A DNA stretch of 14,009 nucleotides from Paraspadella gotoi (Eukaryota > Animalia > Chaetognatha). The notes beneath the pieces are model-generated. The model was not told the DNA's origin and did no database searches. It saw only the letters and a list, made by a program, of their open reading frames with translations. Position 1 is the first letter of the stretch. Each line of letters opens with the position of its first letter. The stretch spans positions 1 to 14,009 of the forward strand of contig JBJCIZ010001242.1 of the NCBI GenBank assembly GCA_051294375.1, read 5' to 3'. Made by a program: the position numbers and the translations under genes. This document shows positions 1 to 13,969 of the stretch, one piece after another.

Positions 1-1790
1 TCTTTGTTTTTTTAAATTGGTTTTATTTCTTTGCCTGCCGAAAAAAAATAAGAAACCTAACGATCTTTGGAAATATCGTCTGCCCGGGGCTTTATTTAAC
101 ACCGTTTCTTAATCATACCTCTTTACTTTTAGATTTCAGGTCGTGTAATAATCAGCTTGGGGTTTGTCTTAACTCTCATATTGTACAGTTTGTGAAAAGA
201 AAACCGTCTTGCCTGTTTTTTTTTAAGTTTTATATTTCTTTTTTTAAAAAATATCGGTAAATAATACGATTTATTTCTGTTATTTTTTTAAATGTTTTCA
301 TAATTACTTTTTTGAATCTCAAGTTAGTAAATAGTTTTCGTTTTTTTCTTGTGTATAGGGATGAAATATAAGGAAGAACGAATTTGTTTTTAAGTCTATT
401 TTGTGATCCGCCGTAGTTGAGAGAAAGTCTACATAAAATTAATAGGTCAGAACGAAAGAGAGAGAGAAGGAGACATATTATAAATAAGAAATGGAAATGG
501 TTTCGTTTGTTTGAATAGAAAAGATATTTAATTAACATGTCCTCTAACCGCAATTTTACAACCTGCGATGATGTATTGTGCTAAATAAGTGATACGGTTA
601 ACGTTCTTTATTGTCTTTTTTTCTTTGATCATAGGTCGTTTTCTCCTTGTTGTGAATATTTAAGGAAGTTATAATCTTTACTGCTCTTTTGTAGTCACAA
701 TTGGATAAGTTGGTGAAGAAAGAAAAGACTGCGTTTTATTTTCCTTGTGGTTTTTAAGAGAGTTGGGTTATCATTCTTGTATCTTCTGAGAGAATATCGT
801 CTGTCCGGACTTTAGTATGTTATAAACAGTTTTTATCCCTTATAATGACTGGGCTTTAGAAAAGATCTACGTATTATACACGATGTTTTGTGGACTCTTA
901 TATTTTCTTTTTACTAAATTGGAAAAAAGAGAAGCGTTGTTTGCCCAGTTTTTTTTTAAAGTCGTTTTTATTTTTTTTTACATTGAAAAAATGCGTGTTC
1001 TGATTAAATTGCTTTAAAGTTTCATCCACAAGTACTTTTAGCGAAAACAGTTCGTTTTCCAAATCGGTGTATTTAATCGAACCTGTGTTTATCTGATTTG
1101 AGAGTGAGAGAAAGCTCATAAATATTAAAAGAGAAAAAGAGGAGGAGAAGGAGACATAAAAATAAATGTAGAGGAAATTATGTTTTAGGTTTGGGGAAAT
1201 AAAAAAAGATATTATACTGTAACTGATCCACTCGACCGCTGCCAATTGTTTATTAGCAAACCTCGTATGAAATGTTAATAGTTGGCAAAGTATTTAACGT
1301 TTTTATTTCTTTTTTCTTTGAAAATAGGTCGTTTTCCGGGTGGTTTTAGAAAGGTTTTTTTATCTCTTTTTTAACTATTGGAAAATGCACGCCGTTTTTT
1401 CTTGTGTGTTTTTAAAAAAGTGTGTTTGTCTCTCTTTGGAAATATCGTCTGCGCTTGGAGTTGTACTACGTTTTTTTAATCACTTTTTTGCTTTAGAAAA
1501 GTTTCGTTTTTAATAATCAGTGTTTATTGTTTTATATTTTTTTTTTCAATATACATTGGAAACGCTCTTGGCCGGTTTTTTTAAAGTTTTATTTTTCTTT
1601 TTACATTTGGAAAAAGTCGGGGTTATTCTGTTCTGTTATTTTTAAAAAGTTTTCATCAATCTTATTTACCCTAGAGAAAAAAAGTTTTGTCTTTGTACTG
1701 AAGTTCTTTAACGTGCGTCTTTATATATTTTTGTTCACTTTATACTCTAAGCTACGAGATAGTTTCTGACGAATTTTCTTGGCCTATAAA
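1..1790. repeat. Degenerate T-rich tandem repeat, unit ~650-720 bp, ~2.5 copies (host flank)
   Basis: Motifs recur collinearly: AATATCGTCTG at 72, 793, 1441; ATAGGTCGTTTT at 631, 1324; GCTTTAGAAAAG at 853, 1490; a TGCC/TGGCC-GTTTTTT-AAGT block at ~210, ~942, ~1570. ORFs here are low-complexity F/L/K-rich. Confidence 0.75.
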
Positions 1791-1801
1791 ACACAGGGTT
1801 T

Positions 1802-2029
1802 TGTAATATCTATTGTAATATATTAAGGTAAACAAATACAAAATATATTCAAAAGAGAAACGTTTCCTTCGGAGCCCACGGCTAAAATACCACAGTTTAC
1901 AGGAAGAATCGGCGAAGTACAAATTGTTTACAATTAATCTCTTTTATTTACATTTACAACTGGCTGAGAGGAACAAAAGGAAAAATAAAGAACCGACATT
2001 TGATTCGGTTGCACCTCGATATTCTGACA
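1802..2029 (-). repeat. Candidate 3' LTR (~228 bp, TG...CA)
   Basis: Minus strand begins TGTCAGAATATC right after a purine tract. The other end reads TGTAATATC on + (imperfect terminal inverted repeat) close to where the tandem repeat stops. Minus-strand AATAAA at 1943-1948. No second copy in the window to confirm it. Confidence 0.5.
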
Positions 2030-2038
2030 TTCCCCCCT
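2030..2038 (-). promoter_or_regulatory. Candidate polypurine tract (PPT)
   Basis: Minus strand AGGGGGGAA directly followed by TGT, the usual PPT/LTR junction pattern. Confidence 0.6.
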
Positions 2039-2282
2039 AAAATATAATTAATAGAACTTATAATTAATTATTGAAACAAAACAAATGGAGGTTTAACAGA
2101 ACGTAAGATTAACTGTGGCCGAAAGACTATAGCAAACAGTAAAAGCGAGCAAAACAAAAGGCAATAGTAATATACGAAAAGGAATTCAACAATCAATTCA
2201 AATGTTTACTAATAACCAGGGCGACTACGCCTTTTATTGGAATCTAGGGCCGACCTCGAATATTGATCGGTCATTGGTTACA

Positions 2283-2290
2283 TATATAAA
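2283..2290 (+). promoter_or_regulatory. TATA box of antisense transcription unit
   Basis: TATATAAA with inverted CCAAT (ATTGG) copies upstream (~2236, ~2273). No ATG between it and CAAAATG|GTAAG at 2360-2371. Confidence 0.55.
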
Positions 2291-2363
2291 GAAAACAGAA
2301 AGATATCAATCAAATACCAATACGGATATCGAAAAAATCGCCGCCAAAATTACGGACGACAAA

Positions 2364-3506
2364 ATGGTAAGCTAAATTTTGGAATAAACACTCGCCATCG
2401 AACAGTCGAAACTACATATAACTAAGAATTTACTTAACTCTAAATTAAATATACCAGAATGTTTTCTTTAATAATTTTTATCGCCATCGCTGCTTCGATC
2501 GCCTCAGAGCCGCTGGACCCTGAAGGGGAGCTGAAACTCTTATGTAGTCACCCGCAATTTTCGAATTCGGGCCTATGTAAGGGCGAGGTGACCTCGACGG
2601 GAACGGCGGCCATTTTACCGCCTTCGACTGTTTCTCCCATCCGAACAAGGGTCGGCGATTCGGTCAAGGCCCACGCCTTGGGTTTCGTTGAGAAACTTTT
2701 CGTCTCTATTGGAAGCGCTGTAGGACTCTATATCTCAGCGGTTTTAGTTTTACGTTTTCGGGTAAAGATGTCCTGGGTAGAAGCCATCACCTTGGCGTTG
2801 GCGTCATGCCGCGGTTCGAACGCCAGGTGTGTCTGGAATATACACAGAGACTCTGACCCTGGAGACGATATTGAGATGCGCTCCGTAAAAGTCAGCTATG
2901 TTTAAAAATTTTTAATTAAAAATAAATTTCACGACGGAGCTCAAGATGTGTTTTATTTGTATTTTAATAATTTTTAGGTTAATTTTAAAATTTATTTTAA
3001 ATTAGTATATTTTATTCAGGCGCCAGCCCACATCGAATTACTCACCAAGCTGGGATGGACGGTCGGACATCGTTGTCTCATAGAGGTTAATCAGCACGGA
3101 GCACTCGGCACATGCCAAACGGATCAGCGATGGATCTACTTAATCATCATCACATCGCTATCACTCGCCATGGCGCTTCTCGCCATTCGATGGGTCATTC
3201 GCAAATTCCAATATTGCGGTAAGCATGAAACAACACAACATAATATGAAACACAGAACACAAAATAAATGTTTGATATATATTTTGTCAAAATAATCAAT
3301 TACCTCATCAATTGATATAATTATTCATCTCCCCTTTTTTCTTTTTTTTTACAGTTCTTACGATGAGCTCATCTTTCTGCCTACGAGCAATCTGCTGCTG
3401 TTTACGGACAGAGGCAGCAGCCTCCGTCACTCCCGTTGCCAATCAATCGAAAACTTCGGCAGTCACCACGCCGAAAACGTCAAATTCCGTCATCGAGATC
3501 CCTTAA
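2364..3506 (+). CDS. Spliced 117-aa single-pass small membrane protein (exons 2364-2366, 3020-3218, 3355-3506), FAST-like architecture
   Basis: ATG|GTAAGC donor (2367), TTTTATTCAG| acceptor (3019), G|GTAAGC donor (3219), 23-nt pyrimidine tract + ACAG| acceptor (3354). Joined exons are 354 nt and open to TAA: MAPAHIELLTKLGWTVGHRCLIEVNQHGALGTCQTDQRWIYLIIITSLSLAMALLAIRWVIRKFQYCVLTMSSSFCLRAICCCLRTEAAASVTPVANQSKTSAVTTPKTSNSVIEIP. Exons are more GC-rich than the intron flanks. ATTAAA at 3520. Confidence 0.7.
2459..2905 (+). CDS. 148-aa predicted type I membrane protein of unknown function
   Basis: ATG start, signal-peptide-like MFSLIIFIAIAASIA, C29-x10-C40, TM LFVSIGSAVGLYISAVLVL, basic RFRVK, C-terminal SYV. 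GC-rich island in AT-rich DNA, followed by AATAAA. Confidence 0.7.
   Translation: MFSLIIFIAIAASIASEPLDPEGELKLLCSHPQFSNSGLCKGEVTSTGTAAILPPSTVSPIRTRVGDSVKAHALGFVEKLFVSIGSAVGLYISAVLVLRFRVKMSWVEAITLALASCRGSNARCVWNIHRDSDPGDDIEMRSVKVSYV
2921..2960 (+). terminator. Polyadenylation signal for the 148-aa ORF
   Basis: AATAAA at 2921-2926, 15 nt after the stop, followed by GT/T-rich GATGTGTTTTATTTGT at 2945-2960. Confidence 0.5.
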
Positions 3507-3636
3507 AGGAAACCATCTGATTAAAGCCATCGAATTTATTTTCTAAGTAAATAATTATTTTAATAGCATTAATTCTAACAATATTGATCATCCTAGTCGA
3601 ATATACACATTCTTAAATGGCTCCATCTCCACCAAG

Positions 3637-4254
3637 TCATTCCTTGACGAAGGTGACAGTCTTTTCTCTACCCATCACAGTAACGGTCCTAGTCGAGAAG
3701 TCAGACGTCTCCAACGACTCGAATAGCCAGTTAAGAATAGTTCGCACGAGATCAGTGCCACCGGGGTTCAGATGGATCGCATCACGATCATACAGCGGCG
3801 CGCATATACTATACCCAAGTGCTCTTGGTAGTGTGAGACATCCGTGACGAACATGTATATGTAATGGGTGAACCGGACGTATCGATTTGTCGATAAGAAA
3901 TGACGCATCGACAAAACTACCTCTATCAACCGTTAGCCGGGGAATAAGGGACATTGTAACAATGTGTACATTAGGATATAGGCTCCCGGCCAAAGAGACC
4001 AATTTCCGAAATTCGACTAAAAAAGATTCAACGGATAAATCTTTATCCAGATCATTTCCTCCTCCCATAATAACAATCGCCGAGAATTCACGAGTATTTC
4101 TACGCAGAATCTCGGTAAAGTGGCGGAAACGCCCGCCCGTGACGGACGTGGTGGTTACATCAGGGAGCTTCCCTTGCAAACGCCGTACATGGGAGTCGCC
4201 AAGGATCCAGTAGCCTTTTGTCACTCCTAAATGGGTCGAGACCATTTTCCCCAT
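3637..4254 (-). CDS. SGNH/GDSL hydrolase (esterase/lipase) ORF3
   Basis: Block I ILGDSH, block II GG, block III MGGGND, block V DAIH, so S, G, N, D and H are all present. First ATG at 4254 (second at 4245 in AAAATGG context). The TTG start at 4296 in the ORF track lies in a pyrimidine tract. Confidence 0.88.
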   Translation of the reverse strand: MGKMVSTHLGVTKGYWILGDSHVRRLQGKLPDVTTTSVTGGRFRHFTEILRRNTREFSAIVIMGGGNDLDKDLSVESFLVEFRKLVSLAGSLYPNVHIVTMSLIPRLTVDRGSFVDASFLIDKSIRPVHPLHIHVRHGCLTLPRALGYSICAPLYDRDAIHLNPGGTDLVRTILNWLFESLETSDFSTRTVTVMGREKTVTFVKE

Positions 4255-4268
4255 CAACCGGTAGTAAT

Positions 4269-4302
4269 CTGATAAGGAAAGGAAAACAAAAGGCAAATTA
4301 AT
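4269..4302 (-). promoter_or_regulatory. 3' splice acceptor for ORF3 subgenomic mRNA
   Basis: Minus strand CATTAAT-TTGCCTTTTGTTTTCCTTTCCTTATCAG|A: branch-like TTAAT overlapping the pol stop, long pyrimidine tract, CAG. Exon begins at 4268. Confidence 0.7.
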
Positions 4303-7300
4303 GACGGTTTATCTTCTTTATTACTTCTCTCGCTTGATCTATGTCAAGATGTGAACGTATTAATTGACACACTGGCAACAATAAAATTTCATTGTTAACG
4401 ATGTTTTTGACTCTATATATTCCAGTCCCTACTCTCTCCAAAACAAGAAACGCGGTCACAACCTTGGCCTGCAATTTCTTGTTCATGTTCAGAGCAAAAG
4501 ACATGCGTTTCCGAAACACAATTTCATCCTTCTTTAAAGCTTCTTTATTATCAGAAGGATTCGAATAGGTTTTATACGAAATTAAATTTGCATAAGCTGC
4601 TAACCTAATCTCACGATGCATCTTTAGCAGCTGTTCGAATTCATCTTCAACCGGTCCTCTCCCTTCAAACACATCGAGAAGGGGAGTTAAACATTTCATC
4701 GGATGACGCCGAGTAACTTGAAACGGACTTCGACCGCCAAGGGAGATAGAGGGCGTCATATTAATTTGGAATTCCACCTTTTTCAACACCTTAGCCCAGT
4801 TTTGTAAAGTAGGTTCATTCTCCAGCATTTTTAATATACGAATTAGGCAGATTTGATTTAAACGTTCTGAATATGCCTGATGTTTACTAGTATAATTACT
4901 TTGTCTTACTTTTACTCCTAGAGCATCGAGAATTTTTCGATCGATCCTTTTCTGAGTAACACATTTCCCATCAACAACCACACAGTCCCACAAACCGTGT
5001 GATTCGAACAACTTAAGGAAAACTTTGGCTACTTCCTCGGCGGAAGCACTCCGAGTGGGAAACAGAAAACATTCTCTCGAAAAGTGATCGCGCATGCTCA
5101 AAATATAACTGGCGTTGGAGACGCCCGCTCCTGAAGATCTCGGGAGTGGGCCCAAAAGATCACAGGAGAGCATCTGGCGAGGGCCCGCAGGGAGCATGCT
5201 AGAGGGCACCTCCTTAACCGTTTGTTTAATATTATAACTTATACAGACATGACAGGTTTTCAGTTTTTCCTTAACCAGCCTATTCATACCTGGGGTGTAA
5301 TATTTCTGGGCAATTAATTTAAACGTAGTCTGAGCTGAACAATGCCCATAGCTTTCATGCGTTTCCCAGAGAACTTCAAACAGGAAATCTTTATCGATCA
5401 AAACCAGAAAATCAGGAGAATCGCTTTCTCTCACGAAAATTCTGTAAATTATTCCTTGTTCATTCATCTTAAATAGAGAAATATGCCTTAGCACAGTAAG
5501 GTCCAACGAATCTAGTAACAGACATTCATTCTTGTCTGGCGTAGTAGATGGATCAGAGATCCATAACTTCCACTTAACAATGGAAGGGGATTCAGCTTGC
5601 AATACTTTTATCTTTGTAAGAAACGGGTCCCGGAGTTCAGGTAACTGGATATCCTCATATTCATCTGTAATTTCTAAAACCTTTGTCCCGCTGAGGATCT
5701 CCTCAGAAGACGAAATGAGCGCTTTCTCTTTATCATCATGCGCATTAGAAAATTTTTGATTGGGAGGATTTTTATAAAAATGCAAATGCAGTAAATCACA
5801 ACAGCAAGTGCAGTGAGAATCACCTGTGCGGTCATATAACACACAGGTACAGGAGACGCATTTTGAGCGTATATTTGGACCTTTCATTTTGAGTCGAGTT
5901 TTACGTCTAGCTAGACGCCCGATTTTAACATCACCACCGGGTAGGTTAGATTCGGCATACAACCCAGAGGGTTGGTCCGCCCTGGACACTCGCCCAGTGG
6001 TAGCCTCAGTCGTAGACACCCCCAAACTAGATTCTGAACTTTCCAAACTTATATCTACATTTTTAAGTTTTGCCAAGGGGCCCTTTTTACCCGCCTCAAA
6101 ATACCTATTCATGACTTTCCTCTTGTCACTAGAGAAAAGACTTGAAAGTGGGACAATACCACCATGAGAGTTATATATGACTAAGTTACAAAATACATTC
6201 CCAGCAGTGGGTGCATCATCAGACACCTCATCTCTGGGCAACTGTCTCGTTAGCTGATCCGCAGCATTTAAAAACGAAGGAATAAAACGGACTGTTATAT
6301 CAAAATCTTGTATATATGTCATGGCTCTAGCGACTCGCTCACTACAAATATCCATACTGACCCAGTAGGATACTACTCTACTGTCCACAAAAACGTGTAC
6401 TGGACAACCAATTAAGTAGTGGCGGAAATGCCGTAAACTTTCTGACAAAGAAAACAATTCTTTCAGATAAATCGGCAGTAATGTGTCGCTAGGCGTAAAT
6501 GTTTTGGAGAAATACTGTAACAAGTACATCCTCTTCACGTCAGGTGGCGCTCCAGCAAGAATCTCATGCTCAGAGGGCAACTGCAATTGGCAAAGCACTG
6601 AGCCGAGAGCATCCTTGCTAGCATCCGTGAACAAAACATAGTCGTCCCCTTCTATAGGGGCACGCAATACTCCGGTCTTACTGTCCAAGAGTATATCAAT
6701 GCAACGATGGAACGCCTTTTCCTCTACATCACCCCATTTGAAGCGAACTGAAGCTTTCGCCATTTTCCTCAGAGGAGCTGCTGCTTCGGTCAGGTTCACC
6801 TTATGGCTGTACCAAGCAAACTTACCAAGCAAACTCTTCAAACCAGCTTTGTCGGTGGGCGGCTTAAGATTACGCAATGAAGTAGTTTTGTGAGCAGGAA
6901 CGCGGTGAATGGTTTTATAAGAAACCGCATAACCCAAAATCGTTTGCTGTGAGAGAGCAAGAGAAACTTTCGCAGGATTAAATTTCATGTTAAAGTGGCT
7001 CATAGTAGCATAGAATTCTTCTATGTCATCCAAGTGGGACTCGTGATCCATTGAGGCGACAGCATAATCGTCAATGAAAACAAAGCAAAAAGGCATCTTT
7101 TTGCAAATGAAATTTGACACCTTTTGGGCATCCTGAGGTGCAGATTTCAGTCCCATTGCATAACCACAGAAGACAAAGATCTTAGACTGTGCATAAAATG
7201 CACCAATGTCTTGTGAATCCTTGTGTATCGGGAGCTGCCAGAAATAATTGGAACTATCGAGGCACGATATGACCTTATATTTCGACACTTTGTCAAGTAA

Positions 7301-8848
7301 CTCATCCATGAGCACCATGCGATAAGCACGAGACTCAATGAGCTTGTTCTGGGACCGATAATCAATAGTGAGCCTATTTTTGAGTTTGGTCTCACCAGTA
7401 ATCGGGTTAGTAATATGACTACTGACAATGTGCGGATTCGCAATGTATCGGGAATCAGTTACCTCGCGTATTATTTCTCCCTTAAGGAGCATCTTAACAT
7501 AGTTCTCCAAGATCTCCGCTTTGGCTGGGGACATCCGGCGGTACCTGTCGATAGTAGGGGGTGGATCCTTTATCAAAGGGATTTTAATAGGAGGTATACG
7601 TACTTTCTCCTTCATTTGGCGCCAACGGCCAGTCCAAAATATCCCCCGATAATCCCAACACAAATCTTGATGTTTTTTCAAAATTTCCTCAGCCTTAAGG
7701 GGCTCAGACTCCTTAAGTTCTTTCCTTAGATCCTCCCATTTAAACTCCGCCAGGAACTTCTCCTTATCGGGCCACCATTCATCCTCCTTCACATCCCTGT
7801 TTCTCTCTTTTTCTCTCTTTCTGTCGATCGTAAAATCAAAGTCCAATTCGCCACTCTCACTCTCTCCCTTCCTCTCAGGAGGAGTGAATTTCATCCCTCG
7901 CTCCAAAACTTCATCCGTCTGATGAGCATCCAGCTTCGAACCCGGAGGAAGGGAAAAAACATCGACAGGATCATCGGAGCGAGACGAACAAACATCCGAA
8001 TGGTGAGAATCATCCCGTACTCTAAAAAATTTAGTCACATCACAATCTTCATCATCGTTTTCAAAAACAACATCACCGAGAGATTGATTAACCCTAATAG
8101 ATCTATCATATTTATTCGTATTAGCAATCAAAACATAATAATTTTTTACCTTCTCTTCAAAATGAACCCCATTAACAATAATGCCATCATATGGGTCAAC
8201 AGGGATAAGCGCATGTTTAGTATTCGGGAAAACATATGACGATAGACGAACAGGAACAGGAGTAAGTGATTTCGCTTTCAATATAACGGGTAACGGGGAA
8301 TAAAAATAAATGGGTTCCTGATCGACAGAAATATTCATGTCGGCATGAGAGATTCGATCACGAACGTCAATTTTATCATACAATTGGACACGTTCGTCAA
8401 AAATATGCAATAAATTATTACTATAATCAATCATACATTTATTTTCTCTTAACCCTAACACATCGCTACCCAATAACATAGGAAAATCACCATTTACAAT
8501 GTGAACAAAAACAGACAAAATAACATTAGAAATGCGAACTTTCACAATAGCATAATATTTACATGTGACCTTACCTCCGATTCCGTTCAAAACTCTAGGT
8601 CTAGCAAAAGATTTAATATTTTTAATATTTAAACGTTTAGCTTCAGAAGCGGGCATCAATGTCCTATCACTGCCCGTGTCGATTTCAAAATAAGACGGAA
8701 AGAAATTTCCGTGAACAGAATCTTCAGAAATATCACATCTCAAAAATAAACTTTTAGCTTTACCTTGATCGAGATTAACATTTTCCCGTTCCTCTATTTC
8801 ATCTACTAAAGTCCCTTTAATGGACTTCGCTGCCTCTAGGCAGCTCAT
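4298..8848 (-). CDS. pol: Pol polyprotein (aspartic protease, RT, RNase H, DDE integrase), 1516 aa
   Basis: PR IDTGS (8672-8680) and LLGSD; RT FIDD (7067-7078); RNase H FTDAS (6617-6628), YFSK, KEL, VFVDS, NAADQLTR; integrase HHCC (5243-5359), core D (CDLLGP), D (VVDG), E (YSER) spaced D-34-E. No stops or frameshifts. Confidence 0.96.
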   Translation of the reverse strand: MSCLEAAKSIKGTLVDEIEERENVNLDQGKAKSLFLRCDISEDSVHGNFFPSYFEIDTGSDRTLMPASEAKRLNIKNIKSFARPRVLNGIGGKVTCKYYAIVKVRISNVILSVFVHIVNGDFPMLLGSDVLGLRENKCMIDYSNNLLHIFDERVQLYDKIDVRDRISHADMNISVDQEPIYFYSPLPVILKAKSLTPVPVRLSSYVFPNTKHALIPVDPYDGIIVNGVHFEEKVKNYYVLIANTNKYDRSIRVNQSLGDVVFENDDEDCDVTKFFRVRDDSHHSDVCSSRSDDPVDVFSLPPGSKLDAHQTDEVLERGMKFTPPERKGESESGELDFDFTIDRKREKERNRDVKEDEWWPDKEKFLAEFKWEDLRKELKESEPLKAEEILKKHQDLCWDYRGIFWTGRWRQMKEKVRIPPIKIPLIKDPPPTIDRYRRMSPAKAEILENYVKMLLKGEIIREVTDSRYIANPHIVSSHITNPITGETKLKNRLTIDYRSQNKLIESRAYRMVLMDELLDKVSKYKVISCLDSSNYFWQLPIHKDSQDIGAFYAQSKIFVFCGYAMGLKSAPQDAQKVSNFICKKMPFCFVFIDDYAVASMDHESHLDDIEEFYATMSHFNMKFNPAKVSLALSQQTILGYAVSYKTIHRVPAHKTTSLRNLKPPTDKAGLKSLLGKFAWYSHKVNLTEAAAPLRKMAKASVRFKWGDVEEKAFHRCIDILLDSKTGVLRAPIEGDDYVLFTDASKDALGSVLCQLQLPSEHEILAGAPPDVKRMYLLQYFSKTFTPSDTLLPIYLKELFSLSESLRHFRHYLIGCPVHVFVDSRVVSYWVSMDICSERVARAMTYIQDFDITVRFIPSFLNAADQLTRQLPRDEVSDDAPTAGNVFCNLVIYNSHGGIVPLSSLFSSDKRKVMNRYFEAGKKGPLAKLKNVDISLESSESSLGVSTTEATTGRVSRADQPSGLYAESNLPGGDVKIGRLARRKTRLKMKGPNIRSKCVSCTCVLYDRTGDSHCTCCCDLLHLHFYKNPPNQKFSNAHDDKEKALISSSEEILSGTKVLEITDEYEDIQLPELRDPFLTKIKVLQAESPSIVKWKLWISDPSTTPDKNECLLLDSLDLTVLRHISLFKMNEQGIIYRIFVRESDSPDFLVLIDKDFLFEVLWETHESYGHCSAQTTFKLIAQKYYTPGMNRLVKEKLKTCHVCISYNIKQTVKEVPSSMLPAGPRQMLSCDLLGPLPRSSGAGVSNASYILSMRDHFSRECFLFPTRSASAEEVAKVFLKLFESHGLWDCVVVDGKCVTQKRIDRKILDALGVKVRQSNYTSKHQAYSERLNQICLIRILKMLENEPTLQNWAKVLKKVEFQINMTPSISLGGRSPFQVTRRHPMKCLTPLLDVFEGRGPVEDEFEQLLKMHREIRLAAYANLISYKTYSNPSDNKEALKKDEIVFRKRMSFALNMNKKLQAKVVTAFLVLERVGTGIYRVKNIVNNEILLLPVCQLIRSHLDIDQAREVIKKINRH

Positions 8849-8857
8849 ATTATGTCA
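8829..8857 (-). promoter_or_regulatory. Candidate gag-pol stop-codon readthrough signal
   Basis: GAA TGA CAT AAT ATG: pol is in frame with gag. UGA-C context, and a GCUGCC-UAGA-GGCAGC hairpin begins 10 nt after the stop. Confidence 0.5.
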
Positions 8858-11218
8858 TTCAAAATCAGATTCGTGGAATTCATAGTCCTCGAAATCATTC
8901 GAAAAGGCAACAATATTTTTAACGCCATCTTTCCCTATTTTAGGATCGCTCCCTTTCGAAGGGAGGGCCGCTCGAAATTTCTCCTTCGCCGCAATAACCT
9001 TCGTCACATCTTCTGGACATCTACGACAAAGAAGAGAAACATGCCTCCCATTTTCGTTGTACTGTTTACAAAACAGACAATATTTTAAAGAGCATTTTAT
9101 CATGGCATGCCCGTGAGTAAAGCATTGAAAGCAACAACCAGCCGGCATTTTTTTCTTCTCGGCTGCATCAAAGAATTTCTGCATCCGGCTCTTCTTTCCA
9201 ACGAAGTAAAAATAATCATTCAAATCGTCGTCATGATTATCGTCGTCGCCGGAAACGGAATCCGAATCATCGGACGCCGGATAGGAACGGGCGGTCATCA
9301 CTCGCCGCTGTGGTGAAGGATGGGCAGACGAGGAGGAAGACGAACCCCCAACATAATCACGTGAGTCGGTGTGATAAGCACGTTGTGGACGAGACGATCT
9401 ATCTGGTCGGTCTCGTTTATCTTTCACTATATTATCATGTAATGCTGAAACGTCATCAACTATATCGGTAAATTCTTTTTTCCAAAAATTCGTATGACGG
9501 AGAGTATCTTTAATCTCCCTATTATTCAAACCCTCTATAAACTTCCATTTGTAAGATTCGACTGACCGACCAAGTCGATCACAGAACCCCTGAAAACGTA
9601 CAGAATATTCGTAGATATCCTCAACACCTTGTTTGAGAGATCCGAATCCTTGCTCCAAGGCAGATTCGTAACTGGGGAAACAGACACGGAAAATTTTATC
9701 GAAGAATTCGCTTACATTAAATACAGTAGTCTGTAACATAACTCTATCACCAGTAGTCTTAATTTTACCCCGGAAATGTGCACAAGCAATTAAACATTTC
9801 ACTCTCTCAGGAGTATCGAAAAAATAATTATTGATATCGATTTTTAGACTTGTTTCTAAAGAAATATATTCTATAATGTCTTTACAATCCTTAATAATAG
9901 TTTTAATAACTTTATTAGATTTATCAATAATTTGTAAAACATCCATTTCAGATAAACGACGATTCTCACGGTGATCTTCACCTGTTCCCTGGGAAGGAAA
10001 ACCACCGCCACCGTCGCCGCCAGCACCGCCGCCAGCGCCGCCGCCAGCACTGCCGCCGCGTCGAAATCCTCGGCCTCCTCTCCCACGAGGTTGTCGTTGT
10101 CCAAAGACTCCGAAGGCGTGAGAATATTCGTCGTCGTTTCTTCCTCTCGCCGCAGCTCCGCCGACCGTCTGCTGCTGGCGCGGATAGTAGCCAGGATCAG
10201 AGGATCGAAACGATCCCCTCGACGGACCGAAACCGCGATTGGCGGACATGGCCGGCCGGCCAAAACCGCCACGGTTAGGACGCTGGAAATGTTCCCTTTC
10301 TTCGTTCGACGAATAGCCAAAACAATCTGGATGACTCTGCCGCGGCCGTACTGCTGGTTCCATAGACAAAGCTGCGAGTCGATTCTGCCTCGAATCAACG
10401 GCCTCTGGTTTCGACTCCGCTGGAATTGGCACCGGAACTCGCACCGGAACTTGCACTTGGCCCGGATTTGGAGGAGGAGCAGGTGCAGTGGCAGGAGCAG
10501 GGGCAGAAGCAGGAACAGCAGCAGGAGCAGCAACAGGAGCTGCCGGAGCCATTGTCGTCGTCATAACAATCTTCGGAGAAGTGTGAAGAGTAGTTCCCAG
10601 GTTAGTAACAGTCCCAGGAAAAGGAGAGTTGAAAGGATTGAAATCAGCTGCAGGTGCTGTTTTGACGGGTATAGGAAGACGATAAGGATTTCTTTCTCCA
10701 CATTGTCGGCAAAATCGGTCTGAGGCCTCACAGGGAGAGTGAGAACAAACCGTCTCAGTCCCACGGTCTTGAGTAAGGCTCTCAGTATTTGTTGTTATTG
10801 TCGCCACAGGAGGAGCAACATGTGCAACGGAAGCGGGCGAAGAATGAGGAAGTCTCAGAGGAGGAGGTGGAGGGAGTAGTTCCGTTGGGAAAAGGACCTC
10901 AAGATCCAGATGTTCCTCAGGATCCTGCATCTCACGATCTGGACCAGCTGCACTATCCACGAGAACGGGGCGTGTCACAGGAAGTCGCTCATCAGTTTCC
11001 TGTTCGCCTTCCAGTCTATCGACGCAAGTACGTAGCTGTCGATAGTTTTCTCTTAACTGCTCCAGGGCGCGGTCAAGGTTTCCTTTGGGAACTCTTCCCC
11101 TCTTCGTACAGACAAAATTGTATTTATTTGTATTTTCTTTGTAGTGATGCGGGTCGTCCTCCCAGACAAAACACTTGTCGCAGTATTGTCCAGCAAGAGG
11201 ACAATCAGAGAGATCCAA
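8855..11218 (-). CDS. gag: Gag polyprotein (true start uncertain; frame open to 11305)
   Basis: MHR-like LKQGVEDIYEYSVRF...FIEGL (9527-9637); CCHC knuckle CFQCFTHGHAMIKC and a second CLFC-x8-H-x4-C (9026-9133); long Pro/Ala- and RGG/Gly-rich N-terminal half. Listed start is TTG; first ATG is at 10930. Confidence 0.9.
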   Translation of the reverse strand: MDLSDCPLAGQYCDKCFVWEDDPHHYKENTNKYNFVCTKRGRVPKGNLDRALEQLRENYRQLRTCVDRLEGEQETDERLPVTRPVLVDSAAGPDREMQDPEEHLDLEVLFPTELLPPPPPLRLPHSSPASVAHVAPPVATITTNTESLTQDRGTETVCSHSPCEASDRFCRQCGERNPYRLPIPVKTAPAADFNPFNSPFPGTVTNLGTTLHTSPKIVMTTTMAPAAPVAAPAAVPASAPAPATAPAPPPNPGQVQVPVRVPVPIPAESKPEAVDSRQNRLAALSMEPAVRPRQSHPDCFGYSSNEEREHFQRPNRGGFGRPAMSANRGFGPSRGSFRSSDPGYYPRQQQTVGGAAARGRNDDEYSHAFGVFGQRQPRGRGGRGFRRGGSAGGGAGGGAGGDGGGGFPSQGTGEDHRENRRLSEMDVLQIIDKSNKVIKTIIKDCKDIIEYISLETSLKIDINNYFFDTPERVKCLIACAHFRGKIKTTGDRVMLQTTVFNVSEFFDKIFRVCFPSYESALEQGFGSLKQGVEDIYEYSVRFQGFCDRLGRSVESYKWKFIEGLNNREIKDTLRHTNFWKKEFTDIVDDVSALHDNIVKDKRDRPDRSSRPQRAYHTDSRDYVGGSSSSSSAHPSPQRRVMTARSYPASDDSDSVSGDDDNHDDDLNDYFYFVGKKSRMQKFFDAAEKKKMPAGCCFQCFTHGHAMIKCSLKYCLFCKQYNENGRHVSLLCRRCPEDVTKVIAAKEKFRAALPSKGSDPKIGKDGVKNIVAFSNDFEDYEFHESDFE

Positions 11219-11844
11219 AAGACGCTGCTGTTGGAGACGACACTTCTGACGAAGTTCGTGGTACTCTTCAAGTTTGTTGCTGGAACCGCAAAGGAGACGT
11301 ACACATCAATACATTGAATAGCCTTCCTTTATACAGAAATTATTATCTACATTAATTTTAATAATTAGTTTATTCATCCTTTTACTATAGAATGCTGCAT
11401 ATTTTACATATTAAAATATAAGATAATTAACGAATACATAGTTATTACAATTTTAACTAGAATAATTTGTACGAACTGTTTATATATTTTTTTTTATATT
11501 TGCAATGTTATCTTTTGTTTAAAATACTTATATTTGTTTATTAATCCTGAGGCAAACCTGCCTCGGTCTGATACTCGATTTGTTGTGATGGCACTTAATA
11601 GGCTCTTTACTTCTGTGTCGACAAGGGCTTCCATATTTCTATTCACCCCGCGAAACGTACATAAAGGCCTTTTAATTAATTTCTATATGTTTTATATGCT
11701 CATTAGCAACACATTTTCCTTTCTTCATTTATTCAGCTATATTTACTTATAAGGTTCCCTATTATCGATTAAGCCCGTGGTTTCGAGATCGTCGTAAACA
11801 CACGGCTATTAGTTTATCATATTCATACTTTATGTTTGTTTTCA

Positions 11845-13937: not shown

Positions 13938-13969
13938 ACTTACATATACACACAAATATCACTCACCCG
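13938..13969 (-). promoter_or_regulatory. Two consensus 5' splice donors in the putative leader
   Basis: Minus strand CGG|GTGAGT (GT starts at 13966) and TAT|GTAAGT (GT starts at 13943). Confidence 0.45.

Follow-up and report, generated by a model that had tools for sequence, protein, structure and literature searches.

A pair of small membrane-protein genes, one lying wholly within the predicted first intron of the other, runs opposite the gag and pol genes of a diverged Ty3/gypsy retrotransposon in the chaetognath Paraspadella gotoi. Tentatively, and at slightly less than even confidence for the reading as a whole, we regard the pair as a conserved two-gene membrane cassette that is likely to be borne by the element and likely to be switched at intron 1 by a choice between splicing and cleavage. 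Here, 'the window' denotes the whole stretch of DNA that was analysed (14,009 nt, contig JBJCIZ010001242.1). The position of the cassette, antisense and beside a Ty3/gypsy element, adds to what a first-pass annotation had found.

LTR elements are already known to carry antisense accessory genes and, separately, small fusogen-like genes, and it is their combination that appears to be new; a literature search, with subscription journals and Repbase mostly outside its scope, returned no description of a spliced, nested, antisense pair of membrane-protein genes. We know of no established function for the antisense extra ORFs of LTR retrotransposons. The known fusogen-like retrotransposon proteins are encoded on the sense strand, unspliced and mostly myristoylated. 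The cassette adds two unnamed protein families that have retained about 29% identity, and it exemplifies a kind of putative element gene that is invisible to ORF-based screens. The proposed switch would be compact, with a single ATG serving two unrelated proteins, both of them small and suited to direct expression and testing.

The retroelement on the minus strand

To judge by its gene content, the window is a diverged Ty3/gypsy (Metaviridae) retrotransposon that carries gag, pol and an SGNH esterase ORF (ORF3) on the minus strand. Gag is followed by a pol with the domain order by which Ty3/gypsy elements are recognised, that is protease, RT, RNase H and integrase. In Pfam, the gag product matches PF03732 (E 4.5e-4) and that of ORF3 matches PF13472 (E 1.4e-5), both under the gathering score, and every SGNH catalytic motif is present in ORF3. 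Named elements are only distantly related to the RT–RNase H region, whose best matches, at 38% and 31% identity, are two unnamed proteins; it groups with them on long branches (SH-aLRT 96 and 99) in a tree made by a quick method from 45 of the 78 rows (89 in all) that passed a length filter, where attraction between long branches is possible. Neither an env-type ORF nor an LTR pair or long direct repeat is present in the window, and Rfam and tRNA scans of it were empty.

Gag and pol share one frame and are separated by a single TGA, which is followed by two in-frame codons and then the ATG of pol (8857–8848, minus strand), a candidate site of stop readthrough. Upstream of its first ATG the gag frame continues through 125 open, Cys-rich codons (11305–10931, minus strand) that would require a splice or a non-ATG start. 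Upstream of gag lies a sense ORF of 238 aa (13327–12611, minus strand) with no Pfam match; a T-rich acceptor immediately precedes it, donors lie at 13966 and 13943, and a diverged copy of it occurs in sequencing run X1, which is guessed to be RNA and is kept as contigs that carry no strand. Positions 1–1700 of the window hold degenerate repeats that recur every 650–700 nt or so and have a high summed depth in X1; they could belong to an LTR or form a tandem array at the 3′ end, of the kind known in Retand. The sequence TATATAAAG occurs at 1727 (minus strand) and 2283 (plus strand), outward-facing and about 550 nt apart, which on sequence resembles the divergent promoter pair expected in an LTR. 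Two plus-strand GT..AG joints with good donor and acceptor motifs lie inside the gag frame in X1 contigs (9360/9952 and 11027/11145), and spliced antisense transcripts cross gag in this run, itself only guessed to be RNA.

Layout of the cassette

The cassette runs antisense to the element's genes; 130 nt separate the end of its last predicted exon from the ORF3 stop codon (Table 1). No ATG occurs from the TATA candidate to the start codon at 2364. Joining 2364–2366, 3020–3218 and 3355–3506 yields a protein of 117 aa; left unspliced, the same ATG opens a 3-codon uORF that stops at 2373–2375. An ATTAAA at 3520 lies past predicted exon 3. The 148-aa ORF and its AATAAA sit within intron 1 of the 117-aa gene, as the first-pass annotation had stated, the intron itself being predicted; an AATAAA downstream of the ORF is at chance level, arising in 25% of shuffles of 2906–3019.

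Table 1. Features of the cassette and of the neighbouring element genes, in window coordinates
Feature	Position	Strand	Remarks
TATA box candidate, TATATAAAG	2283..2291	+	putative, for the antisense transcript
Start codon, 117-aa gene	2364..2366	+	sole coding part of exon 1; GTAAG donor at 2367
Predicted intron 1	2367..3019	+	653 nt; contains the 148-aa ORF
Branch-like CTTAAC and proximal CAG	2433..2457	+	weak; distance and phase not conserved
148-aa ORF	2459..2905	+	ATG 2459, stop 2903–2905; C-terminal S-Y-V
ATTAAA (2915) and AATAAA (2921)	2915..2926	+	candidate intronic polyA signal; T-rich sequence 3′
Predicted exon 2, 117-aa gene	3020..3218	+	phase-1 donor at 3219
Predicted intron 2	3219..3354	+	136 nt; pyrimidine tract 3328–3350
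Predicted exon 3, 117-aa gene	3355..3506	+	Cys cluster on amphipathic stretch, then S/T-rich tail
ORF3	3637..4254	-	205 aa, SGNH/GDSL esterase-like; motifs GDS, GGGND, DxxH
pol	4298..8848	-	1516 aa; protease, RT, RNase H, integrase
gag	8855..11305	-	frame open from 11305; 691 aa from ATG 10930

All three introns or junctions of the cassette are predicted from the DNA. Run X1 leaves 2064–2336 uncovered, and 2366/2458, 2366/3020 and 3218/3355 are absent from its listed joints, which is evidence neither way; the three joints that it lists in 1700–4400 have non-canonical ends and stem from diverged copies. A contig identical to the window (2405–2823) runs unspliced through 2457, which proves little because another contig is unspliced across the distal acceptor and intron 2 and the contigs are strandless.

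The nested 148-aa protein

Sequence comparison identifies the nested ORF as a real gene whose frame is under selection. A full HMMER scan of 1.84 billion representatives recovered three clusters of homologues at 28–34% identity (E 1.4e-4 to 5.9e-4); the cluster members together with a metagenome locus, L003, form a family set of 20 sequences from four lineages. The frame is kept from signal peptide to tail in 20/20 of them, partly by construction, as they were found as ORFs. Among the X1 differences listed inside the ORF, 11 of 18 are synonymous, seven are not and none creates a stop, against an expected synonymous share of 0.25 (P 0.001, for the 18 differences within 40 listed of 118 rows).

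The protein has a hydrophobic N-terminus (predicted signal peptide), an S/T/P-rich stalk, a TM segment at about 79–100, a basic RFRVK and an SW amphipathic helix. The hydrophobic N-terminus, a Cys-x-His...Cys motif, the TM segment, the SW helix and a cytoplasmic Cys are common to all family members, with Cys29-His31-Cys40 and the cytoplasmic Cys124 invariant. With about 60 residues ahead of the TM segment and a hydrophobic N-terminus in all four lineages, it is predicted to be a type I surface protein and not FAST-like, FAST proteins being without a signal peptide and having an ectodomain of fewer than about 40 residues. Class I PDZ ligands carry a C-terminal S/T-x-V/L/I. The first-pass annotation had read S-Y-V as such a ligand pattern, hinting at cell-junction targeting; the pattern is indeed present in the window but is kept in just 10/20 family sequences, from 2/4 lineages, the others ending in S-Q-C (6) or Q-Q-V (4), and junction targeting through this candidate PDZ-type tail is a lead.

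The structure model of the 148-aa protein is poor (pLDDT 51) and found no viral fold match at E up to 0.001, and a word-index protein search returned nothing (0/64 candidates). The 148-aa ORF, exon 2 and exon 3 matched no Pfam family at E up to 0.1, PDB sequence searches with the cassette proteins gave 0 matches, and an exact look-up of window proteins in a protein collection gave 0/5. Atlas offered for the 148-aa protein only leads under 0.9, among them an M2 cluster at 0.77, a score lower than that of chance hits. Neither product matched a named host protein, a weak negative with most records nameless.

The 117-aa protein

Exon 2 encodes a short helix, a predicted beta-hairpin that Cys20 and Cys33 would close, a TM segment at about 38–58 and, after it, a basic amphipathic RWVIRK with three basic residues in six. 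A model built from two sequences (mean pLDDT 77) consists of a helix, a two-stranded hairpin at 17–34 that holds both Cys, and a TM helix. The complete product is predicted to cross the membrane once, to have no signal peptide and to place 37–39 residues outside. Twelve residues separate Cys20 from Cys33 in the window and in L003 alike, a predicted loop, and about five separate Cys33 from the TM segment. The exon-2 model found no viral fold match and no PDB match at Z >= 5; Atlas gave no lead for exon 2, and a word-index search with the two-sequence exon-2 alignment gave 0/1 candidate.

That both products carry a Cys loop, a TM segment and a basic motif, as previously noted, is accurate at the level of coarse features, but there is no detectable homology behind it (probability 0.3%, E 0.21), and homology of the 117-aa to the 148-aa product was rejected. 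A signal peptide is predicted for the 148-aa product only. A myristoylation motif, or Gly2, occurs in neither product nor in their L003 homologues.

Conservation of the nesting

Comparison with a distant relative shows that both frames are conserved, at about 29% protein identity, and so is the way in which one is nested in the other; the nesting is old. L003, the only locus obtained from 192 stretches in a metagenome scan and hence a single independent case, is 1220 nt long and ends after its second donor. It has an ATG directly followed by a donor (ATG|GTGAG, 45–47/48; ATG|GTRAG in both loci), a nested homologous ORF of 145 aa at 160–597, a distal acceptor that ends at 688, and an exon at 689–893 that is homologous to window exon 2 and closes with a phase-1 donor; its intron 1 measures about 640 nt, against 653 nt in the window. 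Window exon 2 and the positionally equivalent L003 exon match at E 2e-7. The exon-2 ectodomain alone scores 60 against L003, a value that 0/20,000 shuffles reach and that compares with 23 for the next-best L003 frame, and when the 159 nt that precede the L003 ORF are shuffled, ATG-GTRAG arises in 55/20,000 cases.

No counterpart of exon 3 was found in the 327 nt after the L003 donor (best score 24), and the basic residues after the exon-2 TM segment are absent from L003. Its region at about 965–1180, after the second donor, contains a unit of about 104 nt twice in tandem and no PPT-like site; the lack of exon 3 and of such a site would fit a longer intron or a 5′ or solo LTR context. Scans of viral contigs with RT, the 148-aa alignment, the exon-2 alignment and P0004 returned no relative, and scans of prokaryote genomes returned nothing. 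The pol alignment found two loci among 18 stretches of viral contigs: L002, a 27-codon match, and L001, a distant env-bearing gypsy element that was used only as a control. In L001, env occupies 3669–5684, a PPT-like site follows it at 5794, and a 131-aa Cys-rich ORF lies at 6675–7070.

Relation of the cassette to the element

The cassette quite probably belongs to the Ty3/gypsy element. It stands directly after ORF3 with no boundary between them, and several versions of it occur in X1 alongside diverged pol copies: at least three versions of the 148-aa ORF are present in this run, in which pol and the ORF upstream of gag are also represented by diverged copies, and a related contig matches the exon-3 DNA at 3366–3415. 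Antisense ORFs past pol that have a promoter of their own also have precedents, in Grande, RIRE2, Retand and Boty. Being antisense to the element's genomic RNA, the introns of the cassette would survive reverse transcription.

It is unlikely, although it would account for the canonical introns, the TATA candidate and the polyA signals, that the cassette is instead a small multigene family of the host, or a repeat in its own right, beside which a gypsy element inserted. Apart from the window, no locus in the viral, prokaryote and metagenome collections scanned has the cassette together with pol, so that no second locus ties the two; long X1 contigs that match the 148-aa ORF and exon 3 do not match ORF3 (80% likeness), and a minus-strand AATAAA at 3540 could terminate the element RNA before the cassette. 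Against an origin in the host stand the absence of any LTR or target-site boundary between ORF3 and exon 3, the repeats and diverged copies that span the whole window in X1 and, weakly, the failure of both products to match a named host protein. To our knowledge, an LTR element normally never ends 100 nt past its last ORF without an LTR.

A further observation concerns the pyrimidine tract of intron 2, which on the minus strand (3350–3328) is a run of 23 purines with TG directly after it (3327–3326). It is PPT-like, and it is the only such non-coding minus-strand match downstream of ORF3; a looser PPT pattern finds the site after env in the control L001. As the PPT of the element the tract is a lead, and the intron alone would fully explain it. 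If the tract were the PPT, the 148-aa ORF and exons 1 and 2 would fall within the 3′ LTR.

Access to the nested reading frame

An either/or output from one upstream promoter is likely, and whether the 148-aa ORF is reached through an unused donor and intronic cleavage, followed by reinitiation, is in our estimate an even call. Transcription from a single promoter (TATA at 2283) would give an RNA whose first ATG directly abuts the donor. Where intron 1 is spliced to 3020, this ATG would start the 117-aa protein; where the donor stays unused and the RNA is cleaved near 2945, it would give just the 3-codon uORF, 83 nt beyond which ribosomes would start again on the 148-aa signal-peptide protein. 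No ATG lies between the donor and the nested ATG in either the window or L003 (joint shuffle chance 0.03), and the uORFs, of 3 codons in the window and 9 in L003, stop 83 and 85 nt before the nested ATG. A point against intronic cleavage is that L003, after its nested ORF, has GATAAA as its only polyA-like hexamer and no canonical AATAAA.

The first-pass annotation had likewise proposed one promoter and two mutually exclusive membrane proteins. The nested ORF and the either/or output stand as real and likely, respectively, whereas the route that it favoured, in which the donor at 2367 picks the proximal (2457) or the distal (3019) acceptor and the second of two overlapping ATGs is read, seems rather improbable. 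The motifs that it named do exist, namely the branch-like CTTAAC at 2433, about 20 nt upstream of the CAG at 2455–2457, and an ACCAG that ends 1 nt before the ATG at 2459, and a 2366/2458 join does leave the first ATG with a frame of 22 codons. L003 too has an AG near its nested ATG, an AAG 9 nt before it, in frame and with 9/14 pyrimidines, which would allow a proximal splice there. The proximal acceptor has 6 pyrimidines in 14 nt, compared with 9 and 13 for the two other acceptors of the gene, but the two joints seen in X1 contigs use acceptors with 8 and 11, and the former suggests that weak acceptors can work here. Initiation at closely spaced AUGs has a precedent in NB/NA of influenza B. 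On the other side, an AG near the nested ATG is at chance level (a YAG within 12 nt in 21% of shuffles, any AG in 44%), and its distance and phase differ between the window, where it lies 1 nt away and out of frame, and L003. A related X1 copy has A in place of G2457, although in a gappy stretch with 8 listed insertions that could place an AG elsewhere. The base at -3 affects the context of a start codon, and the proximal splice would change it from A to T for the 148-aa ATG, while the out-of-frame first ATG would retain its A.

A promoter of its own inside intron 1 would make the nested ORF a separate transcription unit and dispense with a switch altogether. A weak TATA-like stretch at about 2416–2423 could serve such a promoter, and the env of the Oikopleura Tor3b/4b elements, reported to be expressed from an internal promoter, provides a precedent (PMC4402516). 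We consider this unlikely: only 92–112 nt separate the donor from the nested ATG, the window has no consensus TATA between 2283 and 5773, none is evident by eye at 48–159 of L003, and the matching uORF spacing of 83 and 85 nt would be a coincidence. For the route by cleavage and reinitiation, this spacing compares with an optimal reinitiation distance in mammals that is given as about 78 nt (PMC6614817).

Possible function

By analogy, and with no env-type ORF in the window, our leading suggestion is that the pair would act in membranes at cell contacts and aid the capsid transfer of an env-less element, a possibility that we rate below even, and ORF3 is a possible third part of such a transfer module. 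A role in fusion would be favoured by the 117-aa protein of the window, whose ectodomain, Cys spacing, TM segment, basic helix and Cys cluster fit the p10 plan. About as plausible, and likewise short of even, is a cassette that is borne by the element and whose proteins are not fusogens but ion-channel-like, receptor-blocking, adhesion or host-signalling accessories. The missing basic patch in L003 exon 2 and the absence of myristoylation would agree with this, as would the signal peptide and PDZ-type tail of the 148-aa protein, a combination commoner in scaffolded surface proteins; the M2 cluster from Atlas is a lead at most.

A far-reaching version of the transfer idea, which we think quite improbable, would have an env-less lineage with a two-part transmission module, in which the 148-aa protein is an attachment or junction anchor and the 117-aa protein a p10-like fusogen, the antisense RNA starts in U3 of the 3′ LTR, one ATG toggles between the two, and the intron-2 tract doubles as the PPT. 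If this were true, a solo LTR would suffice for the 148-aa protein whereas the complete fusogen would need a full element, and ORF screens would miss the fusogen because its first exon codes only for Met.

Comparison with known systems

The 5′ splice site in the IgM heavy chain gene competes with an intronic cleavage site. The choice proposed at intron 1 would be of the same kind, yet the IgM switch exchanges the C-termini of one protein, whereas the window would exchange the whole protein, because exon 1 codes only for Met.

The closest likeness of the 117-aa product is to the p10 FAST proteins, with which it shares a predicted short ectodomain, a predicted Cys loop and a TM segment, besides a basic patch and putatively cytoplasmic Cys residues seen in the window (PMC3961370, PMC12945298). 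The p10 ectodomain is described as 36–40 residues long with a cystine loop, 11 residues between the Cys, and a two-residue linker and 13-residue MPER before the TM segment (PMC3961370), and pistolvirus p10-like candidates as having 10–14 residues between the Cys (PMC12945298). The single predicted TM segment, the predicted lack of a signal peptide and the predicted ectodomain length of the 117-aa protein all agree with this plan, and its Cys spacing of 12 falls in the range of the candidates. Where p10 has a membrane-proximal polybasic patch and palmitoylated Cys, the window has three basic residues after the TM segment and a Cys cluster in predicted exon 3; L003 exon 2 has no such basic residues. 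The differences are that no sequence or fold match exists, that the loop lies nearer the TM segment with no MPER, and that p10 FAST proteins are encoded by RNA viruses while the 117-aa gene is putatively that of a retroelement. With no MPER, and with the basic patch absent from L003 exon 2, we do not file the 117-aa protein as a FAST member.

Among retroelements, the capsids of Drosophila MDG1 elements are reported to reach the oocyte from the soma by means of a FAST-like protein (PMC11952523). As in the sORF2 of the MDG1 group described there, the setting is an env-less Ty3/gypsy element, the protein is small and single-pass with a short ectodomain and a basic amphipathic tail, and some MDG1-group and insect sORF2 genes also lie downstream of pol. 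That study gives 105/105 insect FAST-like candidates as sense-strand, chosen by an N-myristoylation motif among unspliced ORFs, and mentions two Drosophila sORF2 that likewise have no such motif. Neither MGxxxS/T nor the sense orientation is found in the cassette, and unlike sORF2 as described, the 117-aa gene is antisense and spliced, begins with an exon that codes only for Met, encodes a protein with a Cys loop and without Gly2, and harbours a second membrane gene in its intron.

Antisense ORFs between pol and the 3′ LTR are documented in maize Grande (gene23), rice RIRE2, Retand and fungal Boty (PMC7264820, PMC11963269). They resemble the cassette in being antisense past pol, with a promoter of their own and often near tandem repeats; their proteins, in these accounts, are nuclear or predicted to bind DNA (TRP28), while the window pair are predicted membrane proteins from spliced, nested genes, and neither TRP28 (PF04195) nor another DNA-binding domain was detected in the 148-aa ORF, exon 2 or exon 3 (Pfam, E up to 0.1). 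In the bdelloid rotifer element Vesta, an SGNH esterase ORF with intact catalytic residues is reported past pol, and other Vesta clades have a small Cys-bearing TM ORF3, the latter proposed as env substitutes (PMC5408684). The window resembles Vesta1, by ORF content only, in having an SGNH ORF with catalytic motifs after pol, but the extra ORFs of Vesta are described as single ORF3 types, whereas the window combines an esterase with two antisense membrane genes.
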